Shown here in pieces: positions 20,875 through 22,336 of a stretch of DNA of 64,000 nt (position 1 is its first letter; each line of letters opens with the position of its first letter). The position numbers were made by a program, and so were the translations under genes. The notes under the pieces were generated by a model, which was given only the letters and a program-made list of their open reading frames with translations, ran no database searches and was not told the DNA's origin. The DNA lies in the IMG/VR virus record IMGVR_UViG_3300031867_000042, positions 4,909 to 68,908 of that record; one strand, written 5' to 3'. Source of the DNA: a virus (Duplodnaviria; Caudoviricetes).

Positions 20875-21345
20875 ATGGAAGATTTAAAAACATTTGTTGG
20901 AGTAAAGATGATTCAGGCAAAGCCTATGAATTATCATCAGTTTCTTTCTGAGATTAAGAATGTTAACGAAGCAGTAGCTAAACATGAAGTCTACGGAGAA
21001 GACAAGGAAGGCTATCTTGTCGTATATCCAGATGGCTACAAGTCATGGTCTCCGAAAGACGTATTCGAGGCTGCTTATTTCGGTCTTGAGGCTGACAATG
21101 TAATTTCCAAGAATGACGTGGAAAACTTCATTGATGACGGTAAATTTACTCAGCTGTCAGACAAGTCTGCGGTAGTTACTTATACTGGAAAGACAGGCTT
21201 TGAGTATAATGCAGTTAGTTCATGCGTTGACCCAGCAAGATTCAGGGAGGAAATTGCAATGACGGTTACTAAGAACTCTGTTATGGATAGGGTCTGGGAG
21301 CATCTTGGTTTTGTTTTGCAGTGGGCTAAGAACGGGTTGAAGTAA
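20875..21345 (+). CDS. tad1: Tad1-family (Gp49/Sf6 gp66) immune-signal sponge fused to an N-terminal GY.V.Y.DGY.SWSP domain
   Basis: C-terminal SSCVDP..F.EEI.......DRVWEHLGFVLQWA matches the Tad1 signature; N-terminal VGVKMIQAKPM...GYLVVYPDGYKSWSPKDVFEAAY. Confidence 0.75.
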   Translation: MEDLKTFVGVKMIQAKPMNYHQFLSEIKNVNEAVAKHEVYGEDKEGYLVVYPDGYKSWSPKDVFEAAYFGLEADNVISKNDVENFIDDGKFTQLSDKSAVVTYTGKTGFEYNAVSSCVDPARFREEIAMTVTKNSVMDRVWEHLGFVLQWAKNGLK

Positions 21346-21494
21346 TGAAAGTGAAAGAATTTGTAACGGATAGGGAACTCAAAGACCTTATCCGTCTTGT
21401 ACTAAAATACCATGCGGAAAATCTCGCAGCAGATTTTCACACCGAGAGCGAGGAAGAATACATTTATCGTAAAATTAAAAATAATGAAGCATAA
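21345..21494 (+). CDS. Small hypothetical protein (49 aa)
   Basis: TAATG-coupled to upstream gene; translated by hand. Confidence 0.5.
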   Translation: MKVKEFVTDRELKDLIRLVLKYHAENLAADFHTESEEEYIYRKIKNNEA

Positions 21495-21798
21495 GTATTT
21501 TATTAAAGAAATAAAGGTTCTTAAAAAAGTCAATGCTTTGGATGAACCTTTGGAGTATCAGACATCATACGTTATTTGCCGGACCTCTGGATGGTTTTGG
21601 CTACCGTCGTTGTTTACTGAGTATTTGTGGGTTGCCAGCATATCAGAGGCAATAGGAAAGATACACGACAGTGAGAGAGTTGAAGTTGACTGGGTTCACT
21701 GGGTACCGGGAGAGCGATTTAGATACAAAGAGCAGGCGGAATACTTTTTAAGAAAAATGAAACATTTTCCAAATGATTTTTATATAAATGTAAAATAA
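21484..21798 (+). CDS. Hypothetical protein
   Basis: ORF 21412-21798; start at MKHKYF. Confidence 0.6.
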   Translation: MKHKYFIKEIKVLKKVNALDEPLEYQTSYVICRTSGWFWLPSLFTEYLWVASISEAIGKIHDSERVEVDWVHWVPGERFRYKEQAEYFLRKMKHFPNDFYINVK

Positions 21799-22085
21799 TG
21801 ATAGGAACATACAGAAAGAAGCCAGTAGTCATTCAGGCAGTACAATGGACTGGCGATAATCCGTGCGAAATTCAAGAATTTGCCGGTAATGCTGCAACAA
21901 TAACGACGCACGACCCAATAGATGATATGGGAGTATTTGTAGGACGCGACAGGGTTGAGCTTTCTATCAATACGTTAGAGGGTGAAATGAAAGCTGCAAT
22001 AGGTGACTATATCATTAAAGGAGTAAACGGCGAATTTTATCCTTGTAAGGAGGAAATCTTTAAGAAAACCTACGATTTAGCATAG
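21798..22085 (+). CDS. Widespread phage protein ([11 protein letters not shown]...TLEG...GDYIIKG...GEFYPC), candidate nucleotide sponge
   Basis: Full family motif present; sponge function (Acb4-like) is recalled and inferred, not verified. Confidence 0.7.
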   Translation: [95 protein letters not shown]

Positions 22086-22105
22086 AACACTTAACAATGT
22101 AAACA

Positions 22106-22336
22106 ATGGAAGCATACAAAGAAAGATTCATTAAAGAGTTCTGGGAATTGCATGAGAGATTGACTAAGTTAGGTAACATGCTGGCTAAGTATGACAATGG
22201 AACTTTGGATTTTACTCCAGCCTGTCCTATCAACATGCTCAGAACACAGTATTACGCAATGGCGGCATATCATTCTGTATTGATAGAGCGCTCAAAAATC
22301 GAGGATATTAGTTTAACCTTGACTGTTAAGGAATGA
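22106..22336 (+). CDS. crAss001_48-like helical protein, candidate sponge
   Basis: YKERFIKEFWELHERLTKL...LRTQYYAMAAYHSVLIERSKIE pattern. Confidence 0.65.
   Translation: MEAYKERFIKEFWELHERLTKLGNMLAKYDNGTLDFTPACPINMLRTQYYAMAAYHSVLIERSKIEDISLTLTVKE

Follow-up and report, generated by a model that had tools for sequence, protein, structure and literature searches.

We describe a cluster of six small genes, open reading frames (ORFs) A-F, in the gut phage record IMGVR_UViG_3300031867_000042 (68,908 bases, incomplete, estimated to be 62% complete). Coordinates are those of the window, the whole stretch of 64,000 nucleotides that was analysed (positions 4,909 to 68,908 of the record). The ORF listing confirms five co-directional ORFs, A-E, on the + strand at 20875-22336, as an earlier reading of the letters alone (the sequence-only reading) had placed them, and the motifs which that reading quoted are found in the translations. 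Because the junctions overlap or nearly do so (TAATG at A/B, an 11-nucleotide overlap at B/C, TAATG at C/D, a 20-nucleotide gap at D/E and ATGA at E/F), ORFs A-F are one translationally coupled six-gene operon, 20875-22734 (Table 1). With megablast, the whole locus had no match among isolate phages.

The operon is very likely an anti-signalling cluster, situated in the early/accessory part of the phage's genome. It holds two members of validated sponge families, one Acb4-type (ORF A) and one Sequestin-type (ORF E), whose activity is predicted from sequence profiles and modelled folds. The two genes lie less than 1.5 kb apart, and a profile search of the genome finds one PF13876 copy and one PF21825 copy in the record (37.5 and 66.3 bits, respectively). 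The sequence-only reading had also seen a cluster of sponge proteins here. That much stands, now with Acb4 and Sequestin as the two known families; its Tad1 fusion and its assignment of a KKPV-type domain to Acb4 do not.

Table 1. Features of the six-gene operon, in window coordinates.
Feature	Coordinates	Strand	Length	Description	Basis
ORF A	20875-21345	+	156 aa	two-domain
ORF A N-domain (residues 1-72)	20875..21090	+		predicted small beta-barrel	BLASTP to RyR Tad gp68 N-terminal domain
ORF A C-domain (residues 75-156 plus stop)	21097..21345	+		predicted Acb4-family (PF13876) sponge domain	Pfam, PDB profile, Foldseek, VIA
ORF B	21345-21494	+	49 aa	small module
ORF C	21484-21798	+	104 aa	narrow orphan
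ORF D	21798-22085	+	95 aa	predicted free-standing KKPV / GEFYPCKPDIFEKTY small beta-barrel (PGDYG-like)
ORF E	22106-22336	+	76 aa	Sequestin-family (PF21825)
ORF F	22333-22734	+	133 aa	last gene of operon

The C-terminal half of ORF A is, by profile and modelled fold, an Acb4-family domain. Residues 77-149 match PF13876 (E 8.3e-9; 36.3 bits against a gathering cut-off of 27), the sole Pfam family found for this protein at E≤1; nothing Tad1-related, such as Acb2_Tad1_hairpin (PF24729), appears at that threshold. PDB sequence searches with ORF A returned Acb4 and no Tad1, and a profile of 66 ORF A homologs matches chain 9e4w, the Acb4 of phage SPO1 (E 4.8e-6). The AlphaFold2 (AF2) model of ORF A has a pLDDT of 92.2 and a pTM of 0.80. 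Foldseek aligns this model with 9e4w (E 3.1e-4, TM(target) 0.66, rmsd 2.1 over 72 columns), and VIA-align, run across 48,161 chains, places 9e4w at the top for the C-domain (Z 6.9, rmsd 3.3, 76 aligned). The next VIA matches are RF1 (release-factor), hibernation-factor and dsRBD folds, the same relatives that Chang et al. (bioRxiv 10.1101/2024.12.30.630793) name for Acb4, the topology of which they give as alpha-beta-beta-beta-alpha, dsRBD-like. No Tad1 structure is among the Foldseek or VIA matches listed for ORF A, a listing that by itself excludes no family. The motif that the sequence-only reading had taken for a Tad1-type C-terminal domain, SSCVDP...LGFVLQW, is the consensus of ORF A's Acb4 subfamily, and the HHpred/Foldseek-type comparison that it proposed as a check matched the C-domain to Acb4, not Tad1.

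On sequence grounds, the ligand of ORF A is likely to be a cyclic dinucleotide. Chang et al. equate PF13876 with the Acb4 family (1,331 homologs), and all eight of the members tested bound 3'3'-cGAMP. We mapped the contact residues of SPO1 Acb4 onto ORF A through a gap-free alignment, in which chain numbering equals the paper's numbering plus one. Five of the ten 3'3'-cGAMP contacts are identical (K36, F48, E49, F62 and I66 correspond to K97, F109, E110, F123 and I127), and the guanine triad K36/F48/E49 is kept among them as K97/F109/E110. SPO1 Acb4 (gene 1.3 product, PDB 9E4W) thus resembles ORF A in C-domain profile, in fold and in the K, F and E of the guanine pocket; it is, however, a single domain of 97 amino acids, whereas ORF A places a 72-residue barrel in front and has half of the contact residues changed. 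crAssphage KP06_gp41 and crAss002 have the whole two-domain architecture too, with 40-44% identity to ORF A, whose nearest homologs in isolates belong to crAss-like phages. N-domain and Acb4 are often arranged in this way, as is seen from the more than 1600 clusters whose matches span 97-100% of ORF A.

The N-domain of ORF A is homologous to the N-terminal domain of RyR Tad, which is gp68 of Pectobacterium phage vB_PatP_CB1 (bioRxiv 10.64898/2026.06.04.730250). BLASTP aligns ORF A 1-67 with gp68 1-65 (38% identity over 72 columns, E 4e-10). In the AF2 model, this domain consists of strands at residues 5-8, 12-17, 46-50 and 56-60 and a helix at 61-67, and residues 2-74 resemble Tudor/SH3-like barrels (Z 4-5, VIA). 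A tblastn search with residues 1-75 reaches 109 isolate-phage records, where the genes are annotated as RyR-domain, DUF2829 (Tad2) or gp49; 'RyR domain' genes of Pectobacterium phages are among these matches. In both RyR Tad and ORF A the homologous domain stands N-terminal to a sponge domain, but the partners differ: an RyR Repeat12-like binder of gcADPR in the former (our scan finds Pfam RyR in the C-terminal half of gp68) and Acb4 in the latter.

This homology bears on what the N-domain may do. In the gp68 crystal, the N-terminal domain is swapped (its beta1 is lodged in the partner protomer) and aids dimerisation; gp68_N (residues 1-86) alone is without anti-type I Thoeris activity (bioRxiv 10.64898/2026.06.04.730250). 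Since the homologous gp68_N is dimerising and inactive alone, the N-domain of ORF A most likely serves self-association, through domain-swapped dimerisation, and not the binding of a second signal. The dual-specificity sponge envisaged by the sequence-only reading is unsupported for the same reason. Chang et al. (bioRxiv 10.1101/2024.12.30.630793) mention 'additional extensions' of Acb4 and leave them uncharacterised.

ORF E belongs to the Sequestin family of sponges, with 3'cADPR as its predicted ligand. It matches PF21825 (crAss001_48) over profile positions 1-60 of 61 (E 1.4e-18; 67 bits against 24.8), which bears out its earlier description as crAss001_48-like. The sequence-only reading was also right to suspect another sponge here, PF21825 being Sequestin, a family already published as binding 3'cADPR. 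Tal et al. (bioRxiv 10.1101/2025.07.12.664507) came upon Sequestin because it is fused to Tad2 and Acb4; they showed binding of 3'cADPR by the purified protein and inhibition of type I Thoeris by 10 of 13 members. The pocket residues reported by the same authors are R8, E12, Q47 and R61 in SequestinA and R7, E11, Q45 and R59 in SequestinB. Read by position and not by alignment, R7, E11, Q48 and R62 of ORF E have the SequestinB pocket spacing (R-to-E +4, Q-to-R +14). ORF E is thus like SequestinA, SequestinB and T4 Y16O in size, in its strong profile match and, as judged by position, in the R/E/Q/R pattern, and like most members it is free-standing. Its identity to isolate-phage proteins, mostly from Streptococcus prophages, is at most 56%, and a PDB sequence search with it found nothing.

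ORF D is modelled as a small SH3/Tudor-like beta-barrel; the phage family of which it is a member is very large. We find 2809 homologous clusters, and the family occurs in 1056 of 50,697 isolate phage records (about 2%), including SPO1 (gp34.82). Twenty-one columns are invariant, among them K7, K8, P9, V10, T59, L60, E61, G62, D70, G78, E79, Y81, P82, C83 and K84. The AF2 model (pLDDT 84.7) shows a small barrel rich in strands, of which there are seven, besides two short helices. Fold searches with it yield little: the best Foldseek match in the PDB has an E of 0.4, VIA returns only SH3/Tudor-type barrels (best Z 3.6), and a second VIA comparison has a best Z of 3.3 and no sponge structure at Z≥2. 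At the level of sequence, ORF D has no Pfam match at E≤1, PF13876 included; a PDB sequence search found nothing, and the family profile found nothing usable there and did not match 9e4w. We therefore rejected the Acb4 fold that the sequence-only reading had given to the KKPV-type domain, as there is no PF13876 match, the strand-rich model contrasts with the alpha-beta-beta-beta-alpha topology of Acb4 and no PDB match exceeds Z 3.6. TadIV-1 was likewise rejected as the identity of ORF D, that family being confined to Straboviridae.

What annotation exists for the ORF D family is sparse and mixed. Among the many viral proteins that it matches in BFVD, several are called 'PGDYG protein'; one ORF D homolog has a weak match to Pfam PGDYG, and the protein atlas offers only unnamed clusters of the family's own and the same PGDYG lead. 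Other BFVD matches are longer proteins annotated as QueE or nicotinate ribosyltransferase, and one PHROG matched by ORF D is annotated as a MazG-type pyrophosphohydrolase; the D-type module is therefore not sponge-specific. In SPO1, one block of small genes contains both Tad2 gp34.65 and, 2.1 kb further downstream, the homolog gp34.82 (L081:2992-3270).

ORF D and the N-domain of ORF A share one fold class as far as the models go, their homology being unproven. In VIA both have the same weak PDB neighbours (8ye8, 3ehq, 3zua, 7egt, 7egs, 4l5g, 6m6a and 3be3), and both barrels carry the terminal motif [SC]PK-D-hFE--Y (PCKPDIFEKTY vs SPKDVFEAAY). A direct hhalign comparison is not significant (probability 3-16%, matches of 10-29 columns), and BLASTP of ORF D against gp68 finds nothing. 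The parallel that the sequence-only reading drew between these two domains is thus upheld by fold class, short motif and fusion partners, but not by profile comparison.

Both barrel types recur N-terminal to unrelated sponge families, which makes ORF D a counter-defence candidate. Fusions were counted by motif searches in the supplementary lists of Tal et al., with YPCKP for the D-type and SWSPK for the N-type. The D-type motif occurs at least 5 times in the Sequestin list (Table S1) and 4 times in the Lockin list (Table S4); the corresponding counts for the N-type are at least 94 and 2. Furthermore, 13 of the 77 D-family genes from IMG/VR have C-terminal extensions, and a Pfam scan of seven representatives finds Tad2 (PF11195), WDGH (PF25311) or both, with two lacking a recognisable partner. 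The N-type barrel is therefore found in front of five sponge families (Acb4, Sequestin, Lockin, RyR and Tad2), and the D-type barrel in front of three (Tad2, Sequestin and Lockin) and also of WDGH. Some proteins join three domains, namely the N-domain, Acb4 and Sequestin. In one 252-residue protein (P0195), a RyR domain (PF02026) is followed by Acb4, so that a RyR-type gcADPR sponge and Acb4 are joined in one polypeptide.

By the same fusion logic, WDGH may be a further counter-defence candidate. It lies between a D-type barrel and Tad2 in one protein (L023:470-1369) and directly behind the barrel in several others (e.g., L014:4289-4606). WDGH has no PDB relative by sequence, and we found no relevant literature on crAss001_48, PGDYG or WDGH. 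The D-type domain goes unnamed in two 2026 reviews, of which the one in PLoS Pathogens covers seven sponge families.

ORFs B and C are anti-defence candidates by position only. ORF B has no Pfam or PHROG match and only four representative homologs; its sequence, at about 80% identity, forms the last 40-45 residues of three unrelated proteins of 119-285 amino acids (P0248, P0249 and P0250). Where the context is known, this module always lies just upstream of the ORF C gene, a pattern that resembles a recombination boundary or a portable module. ORF C is matched by no more than six clusters of homologs (57-97% identity, 103-110 amino acids), whose lengths fit the called start. ORF C has no Pfam, PHROG or fold lead, its protein atlas scores are 0.83 or less, and no relatives were found among IMG/VR contigs. 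In what is probably one related contig (P0125/P0243, for both of which the longest contig has 8081 bases), the ORF A homolog is 96% identical but the ORF C homolog only 64%; ORF C is thus changing, by divergence or by exchange, at a far higher rate than ORF A.

The gene set is conserved in one relative. A metagenomic phage (L165) has, in order, a 285-residue gene with the B module at its end (3154-4011), C, D, E, A and F; it thus holds the same six-gene set together, with A moved behind E. Because the gene directly upstream of C in L165 is this longer gene ending in the B module, and A stands behind E there, ORF B is probably what remains, at the 3' end, of a larger gene that ORF A displaced.

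Published anti-signalling hotspots provide a precedent for such a locus, as they contain Acb4, Sequestin, Tad2 and genes of no assigned function side by side. The hotspot of N4-like phages (Ab09 gp59, an Acb4-Sequestin fusion, with Bes1 and Bes2) is similar in consisting of compact, adjacent small genes that combine Acb4 and Sequestin functions with genes of obscure mechanism. There are also differences. Acb4 and Sequestin are fused in Ab09 gp59 but are separate genes here, with three ORFs between them, in a phage that is not N4-like; moreover, no gene for Bes1 (RuvC-like) is seen at our locus.

Together, these assignments suggest how the operon might act. The C-domain of ORF A would assemble as a tetramer with pockets at the protomer interfaces and would take CBASS cyclic dinucleotides, for example 3'3'-cGAMP, out of circulation. 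Self-association by domain-swapped dimerisation would fall to the N-domain, a module that RyR Tad also has at its N-terminus. ORF E would form an antiparallel dimer that sequesters 3'cADPR, the type I Thoeris signal. ORF D, as a barrel that other phages fuse N-terminally to Tad2, Sequestin, Lockin and WDGH, may have a counter-defence role of its own. Ligands and oligomeric states in this scheme are predicted, as is any activity of ORFs B, C and D.

Several observations weigh against an anti-signalling cluster built in this way. Half of the SPO1 Acb4 contact residues are changed in ORF A (V56C, Y57V, N63R, T70V and K81E), and its ligand may therefore be other than 3'3'-cGAMP. Three of the 13 Sequestins assayed were inactive (Tal et al., bioRxiv 10.1101/2025.07.12.664507). 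The N-terminal domain of gp68 was assayed against type I Thoeris alone (bioRxiv 10.64898/2026.06.04.730250), which leaves room for a second ligand. Finally, a count across 160 loci of other phages, made with a narrow Sequestin profile built from only three sequences, finds D and Acb4/Sequestin genes within 4-5 kb of one another in no more than 1-2 of the 80 loci examined in each direction. As such neighbourship is rare outside close relatives, the cluster is not a conserved unit across phages, and we dropped co-localisation as evidence for the role of ORF D.

This last count is also an argument for an adjacency that has no functional meaning, in which unrelated accessory genes have gathered in a gene-acquisition region and ORFs B, C and D are not defence-related. 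D homologs are mostly found beside DUF551, ThyX and CYTH genes (ThyX in 7 of 150 neighbours), and in a more distant relative (L166) C is present without D, E or A. We nevertheless consider chance adjacency somewhat unlikely, because L165 keeps the six genes together despite rearrangement, the genes are translationally coupled, and two validated sponge families, with one copy each in the record, fall within 1.5 kb. Far less probable is the original proposal that ORF A is a Tad1 fusion and that the KKPV domain has the Acb4 fold, which would make ORF A a dual-specificity sponge. It drew on a motif resemblance and on the fact that anti-defence genes do cluster; however, the only Pfam family at E≤1 is PF13876 for A, with none for D, the best PDB match of A's C-domain by both sequence and fold is 9e4w, and the topology of D, strand-rich with two short helices, is unlike that of Acb4. 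The likeness of ORF A to Tad1 extends only to both being small phage anti-signalling proteins, with no profile match between them.

It is also possible, though in our judgement unlikely, that the small barrels bind ligands themselves. The free-standing D, and perhaps the N-domain of A, would then represent a new sponge family or a direct inhibitor of defence proteins, and A would be bifunctional. The fusion logic here is the same as that which led to Sequestin: the D-type is fused to Tad2, WDGH, Lockin and Sequestin, and the N-type to Acb4, Sequestin (see the SWSPK count above), Lockin, RyR and DUF2829. ORF D is usually free-standing, at about 90 amino acids like known sponges, and has the invariant residues K7, K8, E61, D70, E79, C83 and K84. 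SPO1 gp34.82 is 2.1 kb from Tad2 gp34.65, and the D motif is missing from the list of candidates assayed by Tal et al. (Table S2). On the other hand, gp68_N acts in dimerisation and is inactive against type I Thoeris, no solved sponge resembles D in fold, and the QueE, nicotinate ribosyltransferase and MazG-type annotations show that the module is not specific to sponges. Homology between the two barrels is also unproven (hhalign 3-16%). That the free-standing KKPV / GEFYPCKPDIFEKTY barrel is an unrecognised anti-signalling protein, whether sponge or direct inhibitor, is doubtful. Self-association remains the most likely role for the N-domain of ORF A, and an operon with an Acb4-type and a Sequestin-type sponge the most likely reading of the locus.

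ORF F has an N-terminal lipobox-like lipoprotein signal (...LLFSC) and a C-terminal hydrophobic transmembrane helix, the layout of a unimolecular spanin or a superinfection-exclusion lipoprotein; its homolog in L165 (51% identity) lies directly behind the A homolog. In the same early region of the window, 10340-11791 (+) encodes an orphan N6-adenine DNA methyltransferase (Eco57I/N6_Mtase profiles), which probably has an anti-restriction function. Just downstream of the operon are an RNase H-like protein with a weak RVT_3 match (23389-23853, +) and a divergent ThyX-like protein (24666-25295, +; E 7e-4, below cut-off). An intein-bearing large terminase is also among the nearby genes.

Both sponge families at this locus are already published, and the lead worth following is the role of the partner barrels, foremost that of the free-standing ORF D. 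Two unnamed small barrels recur before five unrelated sponge families, and one of them stands here as a separate protein of 95 residues, with SPO1 gp34.82 as its homolog in a model phage. If ORF D is indeed anti-signalling, the proteins in which its domain is joined to Tad2, Sequestin, Lockin or WDGH would have two functions. The locus extends the idea of a compact anti-signalling hotspot from N4-like phages to a gut phage with crAss-like Acb4 homologs, and it predicts the use of CBASS and type I Thoeris by the phage's Bacteroidales-type hosts.

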